From an uncultured virus (IMG/VR IMGVR_UViG_3300034091_000306) (Duplodnaviria; Heunggongvirae; Uroviricota; Caudoviricetes), in IMG/VR virus record IMGVR_UViG_3300034091_000306: a stretch of DNA of 20,000 bases; one strand, 5' to 3'. The first letter of the stretch is position 1. Every line of letters starts with the position of its first letter. Position numbers and translations under genes: made by a program. The notes below the pieces were generated by a model. The model saw only the letters and a list, made by a program, of their open reading frames with translations. It did no database searches and was not told the origin of the DNA. Shown here one piece after another: positions 2,736 to 19,649 of this stretch.

Positions 2736-2956
2736 GCAGCCTCGTAAAGGACGAGCTGAAATGCGGAGAGTGTGGAAAAGACACATTCAAGCTCTACACA
2801 ATAGCGAATGAGAACGCGGGACGCCTCGGGGGCGGTCCACGATTCGAAGGCGAGATCCGTGTAAAATGTGTGACTTGTGGGGAGGTCTCGAAAATCACGT
2901 CCGCGCGACCCGCAATCGAGACTGAGGGGACCCTCTGCGGAGGGTGGGGAAAATGA
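2732..2956 (+). CDS. Small zinc-ribbon protein (CxxC...CxxC)
   Basis: GTGA coupling, RBS GAGGTG, CGEC and CVTC pairs. Confidence 0.65.
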   Translation: MSSLVKDELKCGECGKDTFKLYTIANENAGRLGGGPRFEGEIRVKCVTCGEVSKITSARPAIETEGTLCGGWGK

Positions 2957-4092
2957 GTCAACCGAAATGGGAATTCATCGCGAACCTCGGCGACGCGAAT
3001 CCGATCGAGTACGGCGGTTATTTCCTCTACAAGGATTCAACCGGCGCCTACGATTTCGAGGCGGAGCTGCTAGAGGAACCGGAAGACGCCGATTCCAAAA
3101 AAGCGAAGTGGACGGTTCGGCGCGTTTGCCTGGACCGCTGCAAGCTGCAACGGTCGGAGGACGGCGAGCGCATCTATCTCGTCTCCTACGCTTACGATCC
3201 TGCGACGTATCCGCACGCGCTTTCGCAGTATGCGGAATGGTTCGCGAAGGATCTTGACGGTGTCGCGAGCACGATCGGCTCGACTCGTGAGGAACTAGAG
3301 CACGCGCTTTGCGCCGAGGACGGCGGAGAACGTGCGTGGGCATATAGGGCAATCGCAGACACCTACGGATGGGACAATTTCGATTCGTATCCTCTCTTTC
3401 TCACGAAGGAAGAGGTCGAGGCGCGCTACACCGACGGCGAGCTAGGCGATAACTACGCGCTCGATGACGCGGTTAGCCTGAAAAGCGAACACACACGCGA
3501 GGGGCGTTACGCTCTCCGCGCCGTGCATTGCCTGAACGCGGGTCAATACGGCGCCGACGCGAAGCCGGGCGACTTGATCCAATTCGCCTACCCGAGCAGT
3601 CCCGATCACGTGAACCTGGCGCGCGTGCTCGCTCGCGTGGACGCGCCAAGCGAGGGGCCTAACAGACGCCGCATGGGATGGCTCGCCGTCGTCGAGCTGA
3701 GTGTATCTCTCGGCTCCGCGTTCGTTCGATGGATCGATCCCGCGTGGGTGAAGTCGTGCGGCAAGATCCCGCAAGATATGCTCGCCTGGTTTTTCGCCGA
3801 CAAGTTGCCGGGCCTTCCGGCGATTCTGAAGCTCGATTCGCTCGGGGCACTCTCCGATCACTACGTCGCGAAGTACAAGGGCTCATGCGAGCGGTGCATC
3901 TGTACGCATCAGCGCGCGCGTTGTAGCGAGTGCGGCGGATCCTTCACGGTGAGCGTGAAGAACGGTGTCGGAGTCACGGAGCACGACGGCGACACGATCG
4001 ACGGAATCGATCACGAGAAAGACGCCGATCACACGGCGTACGAGGCGGACGGTAGCGGATGGCTGCGTCGTCATCCTGGGAGTGACGAATGA
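2953..4092 (+). CDS. Hypothetical phage protein, probably multi-module
   Basis: About 380-codon ORF coupled at both ends (ATGA); Cys-rich C-terminal segment. Confidence 0.75.
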   Translation: MSQPKWEFIANLGDANPIEYGGYFLYKDSTGAYDFEAELLEEPEDADSKKAKWTVRRVCLDRCKLQRSEDGERIYLVSYAYDPATYPHALSQYAEWFAKDLDGVASTIGSTREELEHALCAEDGGERAWAYRAIADTYGWDNFDSYPLFLTKEEVEARYTDGELGDNYALDDAVSLKSEHTREGRYALRAVHCLNAGQYGADAKPGDLIQFAYPSSPDHVNLARVLARVDAPSEGPNRRRMGWLAVVELSVSLGSAFVRWIDPAWVKSCGKIPQDMLAWFFADKLPGLPAILKLDSLGALSDHYVAKYKGSCERCICTHQRARCSECGGSFTVSVKNGVGVTEHDGDTIDGIDHEKDADHTAYEADGSGWLRRHPGSDE

Positions 4093-4418
4093 GCGCCCTT
4101 CGCTACTCCGGCGAGGTTACGATTCGCGTCACGTGGATCGACACTCCCGGGCGAAACAATCACGGGGGGCACTACCGCTGCACTCTCTCGCGCACCATAA
4201 ACAAGGGTACGCAATGGGAGAAGCGCGTTAGCACCACGCAATACGTAGGAGCGCCGGCCTTCCTAGAGCGTGGCGTCGGGATCGACTCTAGCGAAGCCTT
4301 CGATGACACGGCACATGCCGCGCTCTCCTTCGCTAGCAACGAAGAGACCGCCGAGGATGACGATCCGAACGGATGGGCGGAGCACGCCGCATACAAGGCG
4401 GACGGTAGCGGATGGCTG
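4043..4418 (+). repeat. 23-bp exact direct repeat AGGCGGACGGTAGCGGATGGCTG (4043-4065 and 4396-4418)
   Basis: Read directly; both copies lie near the 3' ends of consecutive ORFs and encode the same peptide. Confidence 0.9.
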
Positions 4419-4472
4419 ATTGCTAGGGCGCCTGCGAAGCGCTGGGGGAAGGAAGAGGCGACGACGTCATGA
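4089..4472 (+). CDS. Hypothetical protein
   Basis: ATGA coupling; shares the AYxADGSGWL motif with the upstream ORF end. Confidence 0.75.
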   Translation: MSALRYSGEVTIRVTWIDTPGRNNHGGHYRCTLSRTINKGTQWEKRVSTTQYVGAPAFLERGVGIDSSEAFDDTAHAALSFASNEETAEDDDPNGWAEHAAYKADGSGWLIARAPAKRWGKEEATTS

Positions 4473-5318: not shown

Positions 5319-5479
5319 TGAGACGCTTTCGCGTTACTTTGGAGTTAGAACTAGACGATCGCGCGCCGCGTGCAGGCGAGGGACGTCTGAAACAATCGAT
5401 CCCGAACGCGCTCAAGTATTTTGAGCTAGGCAAGGTCACGGCGATTGACGTGATCGAGCAGCAAAAGGTGAAGCCGTGA
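5318..5479 (+). CDS. Small hypothetical protein (53 aa, MRRFRVTLELELDD...), not in ORF track
   Basis: Fills the gap exactly, with TAATG and GTGA coupling. Confidence 0.6.
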   Translation: MRRFRVTLELELDDRAPRAGEGRLKQSIPNALKYFELGKVTAIDVIEQQKVKP

Positions 5480-6336
5480 TCGAACCGAACGATCAAGATC
5501 CGCCGTACAGTGACGGCCCGATTGATAATCCCACTATCAAACGCTACGACGCGCCTACGCTAAATCAGCTGCTACCGCTCCAATCGAGCACGGTGGACGT
5601 AGAGATGCTCGAAAAGGTGCGCGCCGTCCTCGCGGGCGAGCTTGACCCGTGCGAGGCCTCGCCAGCGTGCGCCGCGTGGGTCGCATCCTGCTACAACAAG
5701 CCCGATCCCGACGGCCACGATTGCAGGCTAGAGGCGTGTAACGATCTGCTGGGCATGTCCGGCGTCGTCGCGCTCAATATCGAAGGTGCGGAGACGTACA
5801 CGGACGAAGGGATCCGCATGTGCCCGCCCTTTAGCTACTGCAACGCCGGGGATACCTACGAAATTACGCTCGCTCGTGACCACGAAAATGGACAGTGGGT
5901 TATCGCGAGCTGGGGAGATCTCCTCGAAGAGTACGAGATCGAACACGAGCTAGGCGCCTATGCGACTTTCGAGGAGAAGCCTGATCAGTGTCCCGAATGC
6001 GATTGCGCATCGCTGGAGCTGCACCACTACACCGGCTCTGCACGCGGCGATTCGTATTCTTGGGTTTGCGTTAGCTGCAGTCACCACGTTTTTGCCGTAA
6101 TGGGATTCGATCCGGAAGGCGAGATCGTTACCTATTGCGACATGACGTGCGCGAAGTGCGGCATGACGTGCGCGAAGTGCGGTAAAGTCATCCTTGAATC
6201 GAAATCGTGGGGTCTAGGCGACGTCGGCGATTCGATTATGCCTTCGTATTGCTCGAAAGAGTGTTACGAAAGCGCCGAATGGGACAGGCCCGGCGACGAT
6301 GACGGCGACATCGCAGGCACGGGAGACGAAAAATGA
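5476..6336 (+). CDS. Acidic, Cys-rich hypothetical protein with zinc-finger-like C-terminus
   Basis: 286-codon ORF with CPEC, CVSC, CAKC x2 and YCSKEC motifs. Confidence 0.7.
   Translation: MIEPNDQDPPYSDGPIDNPTIKRYDAPTLNQLLPLQSSTVDVEMLEKVRAVLAGELDPCEASPACAAWVASCYNKPDPDGHDCRLEACNDLLGMSGVVALNIEGAETYTDEGIRMCPPFSYCNAGDTYEITLARDHENGQWVIASWGDLLEEYEIEHELGAYATFEEKPDQCPECDCASLELHHYTGSARGDSYSWVCVSCSHHVFAVMGFDPEGEIVTYCDMTCAKCGMTCAKCGKVILESKSWGLGDVGDSIMPSYCSKECYESAEWDRPGDDDGDIAGTGDEK
6141..6182 (+). repeat. Perfect 21-bp in-frame tandem duplication (MTCAKCG x2)
   Basis: CATGACGTGCGCGAAGTGCGG at 6141-6161 and 6162-6182. Confidence 0.95.
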
Positions 6337-6584
6337 GCACGAAACCTAACGGCGCCGGTGCGGGTCACTGCGATGTCTGTTTCAGAGCCTACACGTGGGG
6401 TTGCGGACATTCCGGCTCACAAGAGCATGAGTATCGACGACACCGTGCAACGAAAGCGCACGCCGAACGCCGGTGCAAGTGCTACGGACACGATCACTGC
6501 GATCCCAAAGCGTGCAAGCTCGCCGGGATTCGCATCTCCGGTTACTTGCCGTTCTATCAACACACGGAAAAAGCGGCGTCATGA
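6333..6584 (+). CDS. Cys/His-rich hypothetical protein
   Basis: ATGA coupling at both ends. Confidence 0.6.
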   Translation: MSTKPNGAGAGHCDVCFRAYTWGCGHSGSQEHEYRRHRATKAHAERRCKCYGHDHCDPKACKLAGIRISGYLPFYQHTEKAAS

Positions 6585-6826
6585 AAGATCGTTGCCGCCA
6601 ATGCGAGAGGCCGCTACGTCCCCTCAAGGGAACGAAGGGCGTCCTCGGCTACGGCTACGGAGGACACGGTTATTTCTGCTCGCTCCGGTGCGCCTGGCGT
6701 TTCGCGATTGACGCAATCGAGGACACCGAAGGAACGCCGGGCGGATCGCTTGCGAAGAAGACGAAGGAAGAGGCGGAAGAGAAGCTCGCCGATCTCATCA
6801 TCGAATCAATCAAACGAACGAGGTAG
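6581..6826 (+). CDS. Small zinc-finger-like protein (CxxC...FCSLRC)
   Basis: ATGA coupling; CRQC...YFCSLRC pattern. Confidence 0.65.
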   Translation: MKDRCRQCERPLRPLKGTKGVLGYGYGGHGYFCSLRCAWRFAIDAIEDTEGTPGGSLAKKTKEEAEEKLADLIIESIKRTR

Positions 6827-6829
6827 ATC

Positions 6830-7159
6830 ATGAAGATCGAAAAATTGGCATCGCTCGCGAAGCTCGAAACGAAAGAAGCCTTCCACACGACCGCAAAAGC
6901 AGCTCTAAAGGAGGTCGCCGACGCGCTCGAATTGCCTAAGGGAAGCTACGAGATCCGCAGTAACAAGGCCGGCCCCGCAATCCTCGGCGAGGTTACGCTA
7001 CACGGTGAGAACATTTACGTGCAGGTCGGCGAATCCCCGCACGGAATCCTCTATCGAACCTGCAAGGGACGAAAGGACTACACGGGAGGCGGCAATCAGT
7101 GGCTGGGATGGGATCGAGCCGATCGGCTTGTCGAGTCAATCAAACGGATTACGAGGTAG
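6830..7159 (+). CDS. Hypothetical phage/plasmid-type protein
   Basis: RBS GAGGT; globular-looking sequence (IRSNKAGPAILGEVTLH...YRTCKGRKDYTGG). Confidence 0.75.
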   Translation: MKIEKLASLAKLETKEAFHTTAKAALKEVADALELPKGSYEIRSNKAGPAILGEVTLHGENIYVQVGESPHGILYRTCKGRKDYTGGGNQWLGWDRADRLVESIKRITR

Positions 7160-10781: not shown

Positions 10782-11219
10782 ATGGCAGCCACAAAGAAAG
10801 TTCCCGTAGTGAACATCAAGGATGCGAAGCCTGTATCCGTCAAGGAACCCAAGCCTAAAACCGTCAAGGAAAAATCGTCGAAACGTGTCTACAAGCAATG
10901 GGTCACCGGAGATGACGCTTTGACTTTGCACCTGACAATCGATCCTGATGACGAAGACAACCCGATTGTCGTTGACGTGCAGGACAACGAAAGCGAAGAG
11001 ATCGTAACGCTCGCGATCGACACTAGCGGATGCAAAGAAATTGCAGAGCTGCTCGACAAGGCGCGATCGGTGATCATTGCCGTCGAATTAGGCAAACAAG
11101 TGGAAAGCGATCCCGAGCCTCCGGAAGAGGATGAAGATCCTGACGACCAGCAAGTCGAGATCGACGAAGAAGAGGAAGAAGAAGAGGAGGAGGAAGAGGA
11201 GGAAGAAGAGACCGAGTAG
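10782..11219 (+). CDS. Hypothetical protein with basic N-terminus and poly-Glu acidic tail
   Basis: RBS AAGGA; ends in a long Glu run. Confidence 0.75.
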   Translation: MAATKKVPVVNIKDAKPVSVKEPKPKTVKEKSSKRVYKQWVTGDDALTLHLTIDPDDEDNPIVVDVQDNESEEIVTLAIDTSGCKEIAELLDKARSVIIAVELGKQVESDPEPPEEDEDPDDQQVEIDEEEEEEEEEEEEEEETE

Positions 11220-13634: not shown

Positions 13635-14108
13635 ATGAAAGCCACGTCGAAGAACAAGATCGTCAACGAAGAGGAGAAGGATGAGTACATCGATCTCATC
13701 CAAACGAACCTCTCCGCGACGTTTCGCACGCTCCAATATTTGGGACGCACGACGTCTGTATCTGGAAGTGCGCAAGGCATCCTTCTTCGCGAGCTCGCAG
13801 AGTTCGTAGCCGGCGAACTACTCGATGCAGGGCAAGATCCAGAGGAGGCCGAAGAAACATTACTGAAGGCGCTCGAAGACGTCATCGACTCCTCGGAGGA
13901 AGAGGAGGAGGAGGAAGAGGGGAACGAACAACTGCCTTCTATTTCATCTCCAGACAGCGGCTTCGGGCGATCCGTGAAGAATATGATGCAACCAATCATC
14001 ACAAATCCCGTTCCGGTGAAGGAGGTTCGTCCGGTCGGCGGCCTACCGGGGCCCGGTATCGATCCACGCGATGGCGCGGCGGGTGGTGAGGACATCGGCA
14101 ACGATTGA
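13635..14108 (+). CDS. Acidic hypothetical protein
   Basis: RBS AAGGAG; Glu-rich tract. Confidence 0.7.
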   Translation: MKATSKNKIVNEEEKDEYIDLIQTNLSATFRTLQYLGRTTSVSGSAQGILLRELAEFVAGELLDAGQDPEEAEETLLKALEDVIDSSEEEEEEEEGNEQLPSISSPDSGFGRSVKNMMQPIITNPVPVKEVRPVGGLPGPGIDPRDGAAGGEDIGND

Positions 14109-14265: not shown

Positions 14266-14724
14266 ATGAGTTCGCAAGACGACTTCGGCGATCGCATGAA
14301 GCTCTACGAGGGGCTGACGAACGTGCGTCTACTTCCAGGCGCCATCGTCTGCGCGCGTCTCGACGGGCGCAACTTCCACTCGTTCACGAAGCACGCGAAG
14401 CGGCCGTTCAGCGAGACGTTCCACCGAATGATGGTAAACGTGACGGAGCACCTCGTCGTCGAGAGCTGCGCGACTGTCGGCTACACGCAGTCCGATGAGA
14501 TTAGCCTCGCGTGGCTCGATCACCCGTTCTTCGACGGCAATGCTCAGAAGATGTGCTCGACGCTGGCCGCGATGGCGAGCGTGCGCCTGAACGCACTGGC
14601 GTGGCACTACGATGACGGAAAGGCCAGCCGCGACGTCAAGGCTGGGCTCAAGTGGTCGCAGGACCCGACGTTCGACTGCCGCGTGTGGGTCGTGCCGTCG
14701 ATCGTCGAGGCGGCCACGACCGTC
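14266..14724 (+). pseudogene. thg1: Thg1-like tRNA(His) guanylyltransferase, N-terminal half (translated as an in-frame fusion running to 15243)
   Basis: GDRMKLYE, RLDGRNFHSFT, YTQSDEISL, FDGNAQK and FDCRVWVVP are canonical Thg1/TLP motifs; similarity ends after PSIVEAA. Junction uncertain by roughly +/-10 bp. Confidence 0.9.
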
Positions 14725-15243
14725 ACCGACTGGAACAGGGAGAAGGAGACGTACAACACGAAGCCGTCCCCCGAGCAGGACGTCTTTCTTACTCCCCGCT
14801 ACGCGCTCCAGCAGCTTGGCACCGAGTGGGGCCGGAGCTGCTACCCGAACATCTGGGTCGACTACGCTCTCCGCACGGCGAAGAAGCTCCTCGAGGAGGA
14901 TCGCCGTGAGCCCAACATGGTGAACTACTACTCGGCCAAGTCCGGGCTGATGTTCGTGGGGGGCTTGGAGAAGCCGGTGGGCGTCGCCATCTCCGACGTC
15001 CGCTTCAAGAACGAGATCGACGCCATCCATGAGGCCGGCGGCATCATCATCCGCATGTCGCGTGGAACCGGGCTCTCTGGCGTCGCCGGAGAGCATCGTT
15101 CCGAGACCGAGCAGCAGGGGCTCGACGACGAGCTCTTCGACATCACCATCGACAACCGTGAGTGGTCCCTCGAGCAGCTGGAGTCGTACATCGACCAGAT
15201 CGCCTGGGCCCACGTGGGAACGCACAAGGAGAAGACGACATGA
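14725..15243 (+). pseudogene. Deoxynucleoside monophosphate kinase (T4 gp1-like), C-terminal part lacking the P-loop, fused to the Thg1 N-half
   Basis: TPRYALQQLGTEWGR...IWV, ISDVRFKNE and HRSE motifs of phage dNMP kinases; no GxxGxGK Walker A upstream. Confidence 0.85.
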
Positions 15244-16519: not shown

Positions 16520-16763
16520 GAAGCCCCAGGAGACTCGAGAGCGCGTAGCGGGCCCGGACCGCATCAAGTTCCTGCGCTCCGAGCTCCCTGGACTCGATGC
16601 GGAGCTCGAGAGCATCTACAACGTCATGGCTGCTGCAGGCAGGGAGCCGAGCGAGAAGGTTCAACGCCTGATACTCTGGGTGAAGCAGGAGACTGCCGTT
16701 CTGAACGACCCAGAGTACGACCCGGACTTCAAGTGCGAGGAGTGCGGATCAGGGCAAGGGTGA
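16500..16763 (+). CDS. Hypothetical protein
   Basis: GAGAGGA RBS before GTG; C-terminal CEEC. Confidence 0.65.
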   Translation: MARKKAEKPQETRERVAGPDRIKFLRSELPGLDAELESIYNVMAAAGREPSEKVQRLILWVKQETAVLNDPEYDPDFKCEECGSGQG

Positions 16764-16765
16764 GC

Positions 16766-17165
16766 ATGAGCGCGAGAACGCCGAAGAAGATGCCTCCTGG
16801 AATCCAACGACAGATGGCGCCCCCTCCGGGGGCACGGGTTCGCTTCAAGACGGTAGCGATCAAGGAGAGCGACGCGATCAAGTTCGCCAAGAAGCACGAG
16901 GACGCGCTGAACGAGCTCGTCGCCGATGGGTGGAACATCGCAGGGATGATGCAGAGGGGGGAGGCGCTCATCATCAGCGCGCAGCGACTCGAGGTCCCCC
17001 CGCTGCCTCCTCCGCCTTCGCAGGCTGAGCCTGAAGAGGCTCCTCCGTTCACGCTCCCCCAGAGCACGACGGACGACGGGCACGTGGAGATCGTGTACTC
17101 GTTCATCGAGAGGGGGAAGCATCGGTCGGTCACCTGTCTGTCGATGCCCGACGCGATGAATCACG
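16766..17165 (+). pseudogene. Hypothetical protein truncated at the right junction (frame reads on out of phase through the thg1 C-half to 17464)
   Basis: Protein-like up to ...MPDAMNH; afterwards the Arg/Ala-rich text is the shadow of the thg1 frame. Confidence 0.6.
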
Positions 17166-17522
17166 CTCTGGAGGCAGCAGGACGCCTCGCGCAACTCCGT
17201 CCAGATGGCAGCGCGGCACCACTTCTCGCACAAGGCGTGCAACGATCTGAACGGGAAGGAGCTACAGGAAAAGCTCTTCACCGAGGCCGGCGTGAACTGG
17301 TACGACTATCCCCCCGCCTTCAAGCGCGGGACGTTCATCAAGCACGCGAAGACGCGACGCGCGTTCACCGCCGAAGAGCTGGCCGAGCTGCCGCCGCTCC
17401 ACGATGCCAGGAAGGACCCGAGCCTCGTGGTCGAGCGCCGCATCCTAGTCGAGTGCGACCTTGACCTACGCGGGATCGAGGACCGCGCTTCGACACTTTT
17501 TGCAGACCAGGAACGGGGTTGA
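17166..17522 (+). pseudogene. thg1: Thg1-like protein, C-terminal half
   Basis: CTC TGG AGG CAG CAG GAC... = LWRQQDASRNSVQMAARHHFSHK...LQEKLF...GVNWYDYPPAFKRGTF; in-frame TGA at 17157-17159 just upstream. Confidence 0.9.
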
Positions 17523-17570
17523 CGTGGGTTCGATCGTGTCCCCGGGGCGGGAGGGGAGGAATGAGACGTA

Positions 17571-17822
17571 ATGGGAACTGGAACGAGGGGCGACAAGACC
17601 GGCCCGGTATGGCGCTTGGCGACTGATCGTGGGCGCGGGTACATCACCCCCGAGGATGTGGGCGATGCCATCAACGCTGGCGCGACTCGTGAGGAGGTGT
17701 GGCGAGACGTGCTGATCGCCGTGGACATCAAGTCGGCAGAGGATGCCTCGCTTTGCGCGTTCATGGCACTCAACAAGTTCGATTCGCTCAGCTCCCCGGG
17801 GCGGGAGGGGAAAGCGCGATGA
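17571..17822 (+). CDS. Hypothetical protein ending SPGREGKAR
   Basis: GGAGGA upstream; ATGA-coupled to the next ORF. Confidence 0.7.
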   Translation: MGTGTRGDKTGPVWRLATDRGRGYITPEDVGDAINAGATREEVWRDVLIAVDIKSAEDASLCAFMALNKFDSLSSPGREGKAR

Positions 17823-18088
17823 GTAACGAGCGCACGCCGATTACGCACGTCGCCATTCGTTTCCGCGGAGTGGTGTACTCGCTACCACGCCCGAGCAGAC
17901 ATCATCACGTCATCCGCGAGATCATTCGGTTGAATCCCGATGTGTGCTCAGTGAGCGGCGAGGAGCAAGGCTTTCTTGACGAAAGCGGACGGTTCCTCAG
18001 TCGCGCAGCGGCACTCGTGAGCGCGGTCAAGTTCGGTCAACTGCGCGCCGAGCCGCGAGGCGTCCTCACGAGCGAGGATTTGTGGTGA
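17819..18088 (+). CDS. Phage-type hypothetical protein (RHHH...EQGFL...GRFLSR...SEDLW)
   Basis: ATGA coupling; motif pattern recalled from small phage proteins, not checked by search. Confidence 0.75.
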   Translation: MSNERTPITHVAIRFRGVVYSLPRPSRHHHVIREIIRLNPDVCSVSGEEQGFLDESGRFLSRAAALVSAVKFGQLRAEPRGVLTSEDLW

Positions 18089-18137
18089 CCATGAAGCTGT
18101 CCCCGGGGCGGCGGCGGGAGGGGAAGCAGGAGAAGTA

Positions 18138-18299
18138 ATGGCGCTCGTGTGGTTCACCGTCTCGATGTTACTTGCGGGCACGACCTGCGCGCTCGCCGTC
18201 GAAGTGCGGAAGTTGCGGGACAGTCTGCGCGTACGCGATGTGCTGCTCGGTTGGTCAAAAAGGAAGCCGTCCATGGGGCGGGAAGGGAAACGGCGATGA
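18138..18299 (+). CDS. 53-aa membrane-anchored/signal-peptide protein ending SMGREGKRR, not in ORF track
   Basis: RBS AGGAG; hydrophobic N-terminus MALVWFTVSMLLAGTTCALAV; ATGA-coupled to 18296. Confidence 0.6.
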   Translation: MALVWFTVSMLLAGTTCALAVEVRKLRDSLRVRDVLLGWSKRKPSMGREGKRR

Positions 18300-18718
18300 A
18301 TAGCGAGGTGTCCGCGCAGACCCGACGAGAGCAGATGCGAGCCCAGTCTCGTAAGGAGGCGGAGTGCATCTTCAAGCTCGCCGGTTTCGAGATTCGTCAC
18401 ACGTGGGAACTTGCAAACGGATACTGGCCCGACGCACCCGACTACGACGATGTTCGCACACCGTGGTGGCTGTTCTTGACGGATATGGGTCCGATTCGCA
18501 TCGGGCGCCGAAAGAGAGTGATCGAGATCGACTGGCGCGCCTGCGACGTTCGCGGTGAGGTAACCGAGGACGAGGTGACCAAAGAGAATTATCTCGTTCA
18601 CGCCTACTCCAGCGAGAAGGCGATTGAGTACATGCGCGCGCTGCGAGCACTGTCCCCGGGGCGGGAGGGGATAGTGATCCAGTGTCCCGACTGCCTCGAG
18701 AACATCCGATGCGCTTGA
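18296..18718 (+). CDS. Hypothetical phage protein (LANGYWP...PWWLFLTDMGPIRIGRRKRVIEIDW)
   Basis: ATGA-coupled start; Trp-rich core; reads through a junction motif (LSPGREG). Confidence 0.75.
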   Translation: MNSEVSAQTRREQMRAQSRKEAECIFKLAGFEIRHTWELANGYWPDAPDYDDVRTPWWLFLTDMGPIRIGRRKRVIEIDWRACDVRGEVTEDEVTKENYLVHAYSSEKAIEYMRALRALSPGREGIVIQCPDCLENIRCA

Positions 18719-18755
18719 CGCCCATCGTGCGAATGTCGAACGCGCGCTGCGAGCG

Positions 18756-19031
18756 TTGTCCCCGGACACTGCGCCTTGTGAACGCAGCGGGGGCTTCATC
18801 GTCTCGTACGAGGAGCGGGGCGACGGCGTCCTGACGAGCCGACACTTTCCGGACGTACGCGGGGGTGAACTAGGTATCGCTACGCTGGAAGAGGCGTGGT
18901 CGCGAGCAGGCAAGCTGGCCGCGAAGAGCGACCCCGACCGAATCGTGAACATCTACGTGTGCTCCGCGATCGACTTCGTGCCTGAGCCGCACTACCGCGA
19001 ACGCATCATGCACGTCTATCCGACGCGATGA
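18756..19031 (+). CDS. Hypothetical protein (start uncertain, TTG)
   Basis: Protein-like frame GFIVSYEERGDG...VNIYVC; the frame is open from 18678 without an ATG. Confidence 0.55.
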   Translation: MSPDTAPCERSGGFIVSYEERGDGVLTSRHFPDVRGGELGIATLEEAWSRAGKLAAKSDPDRIVNIYVCSAIDFVPEPHYRERIMHVYPTR

Positions 19032-19068
19032 AGCTATCCCCGGGCGGACCCCGAAAAAGGAGTGATAA

Positions 19069-19254
19069 ATGTGTGCCATCCCCGGAAGATGCTACGTCGA
19101 AACCGACAAGGGTATACACCTCTGGTGTATCTCTGTGTCCCGCGGACACGTGAATCTGGCCTATGAACGAGGAGGAACGATTGCAGTGTGTCTGACGGTA
19201 GAGGACTTCGGGATCTTCTTTGAGCTATCCCCCGACGAGGCAGTGAGCAAATGA
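19069..19254 (+). CDS. Small hypothetical protein
   Basis: RBS AAGGAG; ATGA-coupled to the next ORF. Confidence 0.6.
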   Translation: MCAIPGRCYVETDKGIHLWCISVSRGHVNLAYERGGTIAVCLTVEDFGIFFELSPDEAVSK

Positions 19255-19649
19255 CGCCTTGGGATCGAAAACGCATCCACACCCTCGCGTTGCTCGAGCG
19301 CGGCTCCATCACGCTTTGGGATGGATGGATCGTCTGCGATCCCGTCGGCGACAGCCCGGCTTTACCTGCCGTTCGCGAGTTCGCTAAGAAATATAGAGTC
19401 AATTTTCTCGACTACCGTTCGGGCTTATGGGGAAAGCCAAAACCGAACCTCACGATCATCATGCCCAGCGCCAATGTGTCAATGAGGGATTTGATTACGA
19501 ACACGCGCAAGGACGGCGAAATTTGCGTCTACACGCTGCCGGAAAGAATGCCCAGCACTTTCATTTCAAACCTTGAAATAGGACCACCTGATGTATTTAC
19601 TCTCCCAAACGACAGCCGCTTGGGTGTTCGGCCGTGGACGAGGTACTAG
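19251..19649 (+). CDS. Hypothetical protein
   Basis: ATGA coupling, GAGG upstream. Confidence 0.65.
   Translation: MTPWDRKRIHTLALLERGSITLWDGWIVCDPVGDSPALPAVREFAKKYRVNFLDYRSGLWGKPKPNLTIIMPSANVSMRDLITNTRKDGEICVYTLPERMPSTFISNLEIGPPDVFTLPNDSRLGVRPWTRY

Follow-up and report, generated by a model that had tools for sequence, protein, structure and literature searches.

We analysed a 20,000-nt stretch of DNA (hereafter the window) from an uncultured tailed virus of the class Caudoviricetes (IMG/VR record IMGVR_UViG_3300034091_000306), in which a series of small, mutually unrelated open reading frames (ORFs) is joined by copies of a short G+C-rich motif, TCCCCGGGGCGGGAGGGG. The 18-bp motif marks five consecutive gene junctions and its 5′ half marks four more, such that copies flank each of the ORFs between orf83 and orf61, inclusive. 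It forms the core of a junction module of 38–51 nt. In our preferred reading, the module is a portable element for translational coupling, copies of which have spread and recombined among the junctions; it would then be a boundary sequence at which general recombination could add or remove genes. We put the probability of this reading at about 0.5, and we infer both the coupling and the mechanism of recombination from direct observations of module anatomy, motif statistics, reading frame, mosaic flanks, the unrelatedness of the bracketed ORFs and the different tails of their homologues.

Exact copies of the 18-mer were located at 17539 (copy A), 17793 (B) and 18653 (E) and near copies at 18100 (C) and 18270 (D), all on the + strand. 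Five matches with three or fewer mismatches were observed compared to 0.05 expected, none of 200 shuffled sequences reached five, and the five are packed into 1.2 kb of the window. The recurrence at these positions had been claimed in an original prediction made from the letters alone and held up, with three exact and two near copies. The site at 18100 also stands, but it consists of the full motif with a 6-nt insertion (TCCCCGGGGCGG, inserted CGGCGG, then GAGGGG; 18100–18123) rather than a version with three mismatches. The core of copy D is TCCATGGGGCGGGAAGGG (18270–18287), in which the central palindrome CCCCGGGG is lost (GGGAAGGG). Decayed copies had further been placed near 18759, 19037 and 19228; these are genuine 5′ halves of the motif, and a half copy at 19079 had been overlooked, which brings the copies that keep the 5′ half only to four (F at 18759, G at 19037, H at 19079 and I at 19228, the last as TCCCCCG and the others as TCCCCGG).

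The clustering is strong even for the half motif. All seven + strand occurrences of TCCCCGG in the window fall within 17539–19085 (1.55 kb), whereas approximately 1.1 are expected per 20 kb per strand, and their concentration in the 1.7-kb array is far from random (Poisson P ~ 1 × 10−11). The 18-mer core is the sole strongly repeated word in the window, where its copies sit in one block of 1.7 kb and form no tandem arrays. It has a G+C content of 89%, with two A/T in 18 nt; a G-quadruplex, considered by eye, was set aside because most copies contain three G-runs. Copies A, B and E match at 18 of 18 positions, six of them third-codon positions, and yet their flanks diverge, indicating copying or constraint at the level of the nucleotides and not of the peptide. 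An independent metagenome contig of 1702 nt (L081) was 100% identical to the window over 16712–18413, and Logan contigs from four peat-metagenome runs covered parts of the region with zero differences, so the sequence is no assembly artefact.

The copies share one reading frame, TCC CCG GGG CGG GAG GGG, which encodes S-P-G-R-E-G. The core lies either in the C-terminal tail of the upstream gene (B, D and E) or in a free-standing mini-ORF of 15 codons (A and C, and in decayed form G), and the frame that reads TCC CCG as Ser-Pro is open through eight of the nine copies, as had been proposed for copies that fall inside an ORF end; the exception is the half copy at 19079, if the ORF at 19069–19254 is real. 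In four copies the frame ends 3–4 codons after the core, where its stop codon overlaps the next start codon, as ATGA in B and D and as TAATG in A and C. Two types of module can be distinguished on this basis. In type beta, B and D are similar over 38 nt (82%), a similarity that reaches codons 1–4 of the next gene (MSNE and MNSE, respectively). In type alpha, the mini-ORFs are exactly 15 codons each and start with GTG 1 nt after a TGA (A) or with ATG 2 nt after a TGA (C).

Following the array on the + strand from its 5′ end, copy A (type alpha, 17524–17573, core 17539–17556) encodes the mini-ORF VGSIVSPGREGRNET 1 nt past the upstream TGA (17520–17522), and its TAA overlaps the ATG of orf83 (17571–17822). 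The tail of orf83, SPGREGKAR, is encoded by copy B (type beta, 17793–17830), in which the core (17793–17810) is followed by AAAGCGCG, the ATGA overlap and the first four codons of orf89 (17819–18088), a match to PHROG 839 (function unknown). Copy C (type alpha, 18091–18140) encodes the mini-ORF MKLSPGRRREGKQEK and carries a second Shine-Dalgarno (SD) sequence ahead of the ATG at 18138, where orf53 (18138–18299) starts. The latter encodes a small hydrophobic protein with the tail SMGREGKRR, provided by copy D (decayed type beta, 18261–18307), the 5′ flank of which, AGGAAGCCG, resembles ATGAAGCTG of copy C. After the ATGA overlap in D comes orf140 (18296–18718), a member of a widespread phage family of unknown function. 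Copy E (18635–18670) lies inside orf140, with an exact core at 18653–18670 that is read as SPGREG in a frame that continues for 15 codons, and its 5′ flank at 18635–18659 is duplicated at copy F (18741–18765), a 25-nt repeat (92%) of the E flank plus TCCCCGG that ends inside the core and holds a TTG at 18756.

This TTG is the first start codon of orf91 (18756–19031), an ORFan whose sole database match is itself and whose first codons contain copy F. The frame of orf91 is open from 18678, opening right after the TAG TGA that follows copy E, and the stretch 18678–19031 is without an ATG or GTG start; its coding signal in third-position G+C content (GC3) starts near 18720. Copy G (decayed type alpha, 19028–19071) overlaps the orf91 stop as ATGA and begins with the same ATGAAGCT(G/A)TCCCCGGG as copy C, in agreement with the earlier statement that this stretch is common to 18091 and 19028. 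It continues as ATGAAGCTATCCCCGGG with one G fewer than C, such that its frame is no longer closed before the ATG at 19069, which is preceded by AGGAG. Copy H (19079–19085) is TCCCCGG 10 nt inside orf61 (19069–19254; codons 4–6), and copy I (19225–19254) lies in the last eight codons of orf61, with CTATCCCCCG read as L-S-P in the tail ELSPDEAVSK, six codons before an ATGA overlap with orf132 (19251–19649). Half copies F and I are read as S-P, and H is so read solely in an alternative 41-codon frame. The final small ORF, orf132, precedes a D12-class DNA methyltransferase gene (19680 onward).

The module contains a strong SD sequence (GGGAGGGG, with GGAGG inside the core) and its copies stand next to starts, which upholds the prediction that the motif supplies an SD sequence from a position 8–14 nt before the start codon in four copies; the spacers between core and next ATG are 14, 8, 14 and 8 nt in A to D. 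Measured from GGAGG to ATG, the distance is 10 nt in B and 16 nt in A and C, with additional SD sequences nearer the start in the latter two (a second GGAGG at 11 nt in A and AGGAG at 5 nt in C). Translation of the motif throughout, with a stop–start overlap at its end, had gone unnoticed earlier, and it points first to translational coupling. Stop–start spacings of −4 and −1 nt are described as classic translational-coupling layouts, and short ORFs that serve solely to bring a ribosome to the following gene are also known; mycobacterial interspersed repetitive units (MIRUs) may exploit such coupling naturally, and synthetic bicistronic designs use it (PMC12548453). By the mechanism we propose, a ribosome finishing the upstream frame would be handed to the next small gene, and each gene plugged into the chain would receive the same initiation context.

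The layout of the module recalls the bicistronic design, which has a leader of approximately 16 codons and a TAATG junction. In such designs the leader cistron contains the SD sequence of the downstream gene, and its translation delivers ribosomes and removes inhibitory structure (bioRxiv 10.1101/2023.02.09.527918, PMC5995908, PMC12548453), although these are engineered parts. For four of the six junctions studied here, the minimum-energy fold includes a small CCCC/GGGG hairpin that would mask part of the SD sequence. The six junctions (67–73 nt) folded no better than shuffled sequences (z from −1.46 to +1.38, five of six positive), and since the folds are within the shuffle range we do not claim structure. 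No Rfam family, tRNA or tandem repeat was found at the copies, no promoter-like site was found on the + strand between 16000 and 20000, and terminator-like sites were as frequent as expected (3 vs. 2.8), with zero at a copy. A promoter for a phage RNA polymerase was also considered and rejected by inference, as a site of 89% G+C without a melting region is unsuitable.

A further reading is that the core is a programmed −1 frameshift site. The heptamer C_CCG_GGG (18655–18661, with equivalents in A, B and C) fits the slippery pattern X_XXY_YYZ, and the −1 frame is that of the downstream gene, so that fusion proteins would be possible; it runs stop-free from the core into orf89 (B) and orf53 (C). 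Yet an open −1 frame is nearly automatic given the 8–14 nt between core and start, and the palindrome by itself accounts for the match to the slippery heptamer. A stop closes the −1 frame of copy A after seven codons and no stimulatory structure is predicted downstream, which makes frameshifting scarcely credible.

The bracketed ORFs are mutually unrelated, as was originally suggested. Pairwise comparison of six + strand ORFs gave no similarity beyond the motif-encoded tails, and paralogy of the array ORFs was rejected on the grounds that these tails alone make up the shared stretches. A set of 58 homologues was found for orf140; when 30 of the 59 proteins (orf140 counted) were aligned, the conserved domain ended in EYMRALRAL directly before copy E and all tails after it were different. 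The closest homologue (P0002, 84% identity) ends in RALREQHK and starts with MVSIQT, and is therefore without both the SPGREG tail and the MNSE start. The two closest homologues of orf83, of four in total (74–76% BLASTP identity), end in LSPKHQEKP and LSPKRHDKE, compared to LSSPGREGKAR in the window, so that they share L-S-P, corresponding to the 5′ half of the motif at the peptide level, and not the remainder. For both orf83 and orf140, similarity to other phages stops at the 5′ edge of the motif, and the closest homologues carry other tails.

These tails also bear on the idea that LSPGREGK(x)R is a C-terminal tag that functions at the protein level, as a signal for degradation, packaging or interaction. 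The frame is the same in all full copies, and the close orf83 homologues end with LSP as well. Against a tag, two copies form mini-ORFs of 15 residues that are little more than the tag itself, the three exact copies show no synonymous variation, the closest homologue of orf140 is without such a tail and in copy E the peptide is internal. We regard a peptide tag as highly improbable.

Evidence that the module has been copied, with exchange between its copies, comes from the flanks, which were compared against a null distribution of 100,000 random pairs. The 3′ flanks group A with C (14/20, P ~ 2 × 10−4) and B with D (16/20, P ~ 8 × 10−5), while the 5′ flanks group C with G (8/10, P ~ 1 × 10−3), C with D (7/10, P ~ 6 × 10−3) and E with F (8/10, or 23/25 when extended, P ~ 1 × 10−3). 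Copies C and D therefore have a common 5′ type and different 3′ types, which is the pattern expected from exchange within the core. In the truncated copies F, G, H and I the match covers the 5′ half and is then lost abruptly, in or just 3′ of the CCCCGGGG palindrome, instead of fading through scattered mismatches. Together, the flanks suggest that the copies derive from each other and that flanks would have been exchanged within the core. Of the claim that the motif is a recombination linker, the general part is supported by the discordant flank families, the 25-nt duplicate that ends inside the core, the four half copies, the lack of relationship among the ORFs and the differing tails of the orf83 and orf140 homologues, while its specific integron- or att-like part is not supported.

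Sharing of gene ends is not restricted to the array. Two adjacent genes at 2944–4092 and 4089–4472 have only their 3′ tails in common, over 42 nt (4024–4065 vs. 4377–4418) with 86% identity, encoding ADHTAYEADGSGWL and AEHAAYKADGSGWL, and the adjacent genes at 6473–6826 and 6830–7159 end in ADLIIESIKRTR and ADRLVESIKRITR, respectively, over ~40 nt (6788–6826 vs. 7118–7159) that include an SD-like GAGG and the TAG stop (GAGGTAG). Local alignment scores for both pairs exceeded the maximum of 3000 random pairs. These two further pairs make duplication of tails or junctions look like a recurrent trait of the phage. As direct repeats on either side of single unrelated ORFs, the copies in the array would offer general recombination the homology for adding, deleting or swapping single genes, and a circle of one gene and one junction copy that integrates at a homologous junction would leave unrelated neighbours with the same tail.

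The same logic applies to the mini-circles of the promoter early stem-loop elements (PeSLs) of T4-type phages, as described by Arbiol et al. 2010 (PMC2839356), where PeSL recombination was shown to cause insertions and deletions between close relatives and to make mini-circles. Together with MIRUs and the start-associated sequences of Cluster K mycobacteriophages, PeSLs are the nearest known counterparts of the module. The PeSLs reported there resemble the present module in being short repeats upstream of small ORFans in a plastic region, spanning from the upstream stop to the SD sequence and start of the next gene, and in forming direct repeats that bracket single genes. They differ in being intergenic combinations of a sigma-70-type promoter and a terminator stem-loop (PMC2839356), whereas the module described here has no promoter- or terminator-like signal, is 89% G+C in its core, is translated and would act at the level of translation. 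Exchange events and circles have been seen for PeSLs, while the present module is known from sequence alone. Short conserved sequences at module boundaries that allow exchange by homologous recombination are also central to the modular theory of phage evolution, in which such boundary or linker sequences were proposed mainly for lambdoid phages and for exchange between genomes (PMC3029335), as opposed to the repeats within one genome seen here; the same source states that boundary sequences guiding exchange are unidentifiable at most mosaic junctions of phage genomes.

We searched for the array in IMG/VR, the JGI metagenome collection and GTDB genomes and did not find it in another genome in any of these. 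The exact 18-mer was present at three loci in IMG/VR, as a single copy at each and with no BLAST or tblastx similarity to the window. In JGI and other metagenomes it was found in 96 stretches, with two copies only in L081, which is the window itself, and in GTDB genomes at 77 loci, all single-copy. The 24–41 nt that L109 and L069 share with the window are attributable to chance. The mini-ORF start ATGAAGCTRTCCCCGGG had zero hits in IMG/VR, and megablast of the window against cultured phages gave no match. Four related viral contigs (L001–L003 and L071) contain the 18-mer once, directly before a palindrome, GGGGGTGCAATTGCAACCC, in an unrelated context that is probably due to chance. A different repeat was seen in an unrelated IMG/VR phage with an orf140 homologue (L121, 1021–8021), where up to five copies of a core, TTGGTATAAGA, occur in 8 kb, with four extending to TTTGGTATAAG and three to GTATAAGAATA; it looks like a repeated promoter.

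Within IMG/VR, none of the other 43 window proteins had a relative within 4 kb of the homologues of orf140 (13 loci) or orf83 (9 loci), except for the Thg1-like protein near an orf83 homologue on one contig (L125). With neighbours this sparse in 22 loci, these two genes appear to travel singly through different phage contexts. Travel of single genes would fit gene-by-gene mosaicism, but it does not demonstrate that the motif mediates it. The DNA of the window was itself detected in peat metagenomes (8 runs), and in the low-depth contigs (depth 2–5) of four peat runs there were zero joints; loose contig ends at 18064 and 18928 were short partial matches off any motif copy, and a hole in run X1 (18614–18763) was covered by run X3.

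These data also speak to whether the motif is an integron- or att-like site at which a dedicated site-specific recombinase moves circles of single genes, the interpretation that had been offered first. Integron arrays likewise consist of single, unrelated, co-oriented and promoterless ORFs separated by a recurring site. Their attC sites, of 57–141 bp, consist of imperfect inverted repeats (R″/L″ and L′/R′) that fold into a hairpin, and each cassette boundary has a GTTRRRY core site. Direct repeats do bracket single ORFs in the window, and the core has a palindromic centre, in or just 3′ of which the four truncated copies break, as products of crossover at secondary sites would. By contrast, there is no attC-like hairpin and there are no inverted-repeat arms flanking the copies, and GTTRRRY occurs at chance level (22 vs. 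20.9 expected), with two instances in the array (17768 on the − strand and 17929 on the + strand), neither at a junction. No integrase or other recombinase family, IntI included, was detected among the 44 ORFs of the window, which covers 20 kb of ~140 kb (Pfam E ≤ 0.01, PHROGs E ≤ 0.001), and a rescan of 13 ORFs (the 7 of the array and 6 larger unknowns) at Pfam E ≤ 1 also found none. Together with the zero joints in low-depth contigs of four runs, these results make a dedicated, integron-like recombination site very unlikely.

Another explanation is that the 45-nt mini-ORF module is itself mobile, in the manner of MIRUs, and has inserted at existing start codons, where its coupled ORF would render it harmless. 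MIRUs, as characterised by Supply et al. 1997 and summarised in PMC12548453, are junction repeats in operons with their own small ORF coupled by overlapping stop and start codons. In A, C and G the mini-ORF stands free, flanked by the stop of one gene and the start of the next as in MIRUs (PMC12548453), and a coupled internal ORF of the MIRU type is found in A (1 nt after TGA, TAATG), C (2 nt, TAATG) and G (ATGA at the 5′ end). The 5′ flank of copy D (AGGAAGCCG vs. ATGAAGCTG) could then be a mutated mini-ORF start. However, the tails encoded by B and D are approximately as long as those of close homologues, such that they look like substitutes for other tails rather than 45-nt insertions. All copies sit in a single block, the array genes do not form a conserved syntenic block in any of the 22 related loci, and arrays of the 18-mer were absent from the three collections scanned, with two copies per record only in the 1702-nt contig that is identical to the window. 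According to the same summary, MIRUs are bacterial, dispersed on the mycobacterial chromosome and often in tandem (PMC12548453). The present module instead belongs to a phage, occurs as single copies at consecutive junctions, is fused in frame to the upstream gene in several cases and is unrelated in sequence. We judge self-spreading of this kind to be unlikely.

The identity of all 18 nt in three copies, including the CCCCGGGG palindrome that SD function does not need, could also reflect an operator for a sequence-specific regulator, the alternative that had been offered at first, with a phage or host protein or an RNA binding the 18-mer on the mRNA as a translational repressor or on the DNA in the manner of stoperators, the sites of an immunity repressor, and thereby co-regulating the block. 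The copies have one orientation and adjoin starts, as do the start-associated sequences (SAS) of Cluster K mycobacteriophages (Pope et al. 2011, PMC3203893). The SAS are described as asymmetric, with an SD core, in one orientation just before the starts of non-structural genes of different families, conserved beyond what pairing with rRNA demands and sometimes inclusive of the upstream stop, and their authors likewise leave open that a host or phage factor binds (PMC3203893). The reported SAS differ in being another 13-mer, GGGATAGGAGCCC, located 3–7 bp from the start in 11–19 copies over half the genome (PMC3203893), whereas the 18-mer lies 8–14 nt from the start (8 or 14 in four copies) at consecutive junctions, with a fixed frame, stop–start overlaps and mini-ORFs. 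In the stoperators of Cluster A mycobacteriophages, for comparison, the repressor sites are asymmetric and distributed along the genome (PMC9283540). A regulator would leave the fixed frame, the stop–start overlaps, the equal 15-codon mini-ORFs and the half copies unexplained, the sites are clustered in 1.2 kb rather than dispersed within the window, and no candidate DNA- or RNA-binding regulator or repressor was identified there. An operator is thus a credible but minority explanation.

Several observations weigh against a recombining translational coupler as well. The distance of 16 nt between GGAGG and the start in A and C, which have their own nearer SD sequences, indicates that the motif is not simply their ribosome-binding site, and SD function leaves the conservation of TCCCCGGGGC unexplained. 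No convincing gene start follows copy E, and orf91 begins at a weak TTG inside half copy F. The decayed copy D precedes orf140, the sole array gene with a large family of homologues, so the exact core is dispensable. The discordance between flanks is based on few copies and short flanks, and the similarity between the 5′ flanks of A and B (6/10, P = 0.03) is not significant alone. As the three collections yielded no relative with the array, no insertion or deletion bounded by the motif was seen, and the scan covered 20 kb of a phage of ~140 kb.

A stronger form of the coupler reading, which we advance as speculative and rather unlikely, is that the module is part of a gene-cassette platform in the phage. 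It would plug single genes in frame into a coupled chain, contributing tail, stop, ribosome-binding site, start and first codons, and would mobilise circles of one gene and one module by recombination at the palindromic core.

The genomic setting is that of a large phage, as indicated by PHROG matches and by homologues in IMG/VR and in cultured phages of Xylella, Caulobacter and Xanthomonas. Array proteins were found on contigs of ~140 kb (140,391 and 140,646 nt), the lengths of which differ by 255 nt; copies A and B are 254 nt apart, a similarity that may be coincidental. The array, a block of accessory genes in our reading, lies between genes for nucleotide metabolism and the methyltransferase and brackets orf83, orf89, orf53, orf140, orf91 and orf61, with orf132 next. 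Without exception, the plausible genes of the window lie on the + strand, most of them joined by ATGA overlaps, and few of its 44 ORFs could be assigned to families, namely a Thg1-like and dNMP-kinase-like protein (dNMP, deoxynucleoside monophosphate), a pyrophosphatase, an NT5C nucleotidase, the D12 DNA methyltransferase and a DUF2786 protein. Distant homologues of orf140 occur in phages of Xylella, Caulobacter, Xanthomonas and Erwinia, all annotated as hypothetical, and the family was absent from GTDB genomes. No relatives of orf89 or orf132 were found in IMG/VR.

The Thg1-like gene, with nine loci in IMG/VR at 27–40% identity, is apparently split in the window. Positions 2–143 of PHROG 4717 correspond to residues 4–150 of the ORF at 14266–15243, which continues into a dNMP-kinase-like domain, and positions 147–213 correspond to an open frame at 17160–17522 from its third codon, before its first ATG (17205). 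This frame is overlapped by the ORF at 16733–17464, and near 17160 the GC3 signal moves from one frame to another. Possible causes of the split are a frameshift, a relic fragment or a non-canonical start. On L125, an unrelated contig of 90 kb in IMG/VR, the orf83 homologue lies 1.2 kb upstream of the Thg1-like gene (4001–4195 and 5386–5820, respectively), an arrangement similar to that in the window, and one that may point to a functional connection. Elsewhere in the window, GAG/GAA-rich runs at 11157–11215 and 13896–13936 encode poly-Glu C-terminal tails of two genes.

Phage genomes are mosaics of small genes, and the best-documented case of a sequence at their junctions, the PeSLs of T4-type phages, works via promoters and terminators. 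The module described here comes from a single uncultured phage, with a well-defined anatomy and a function that we infer from it. If confirmed as a coupler that recombines between junctions, it would add to the PeSLs a second type of mobile regulatory junction that works by a different mechanism, and would be a natural version of the bicistronic couplers of synthetic biology. Were it to be a cassette platform, it would represent a viral counterpart of the integron with none of the known parts of the integron, and would show at work the linker sequences that have long been invoked to explain the mosaicism of phages.

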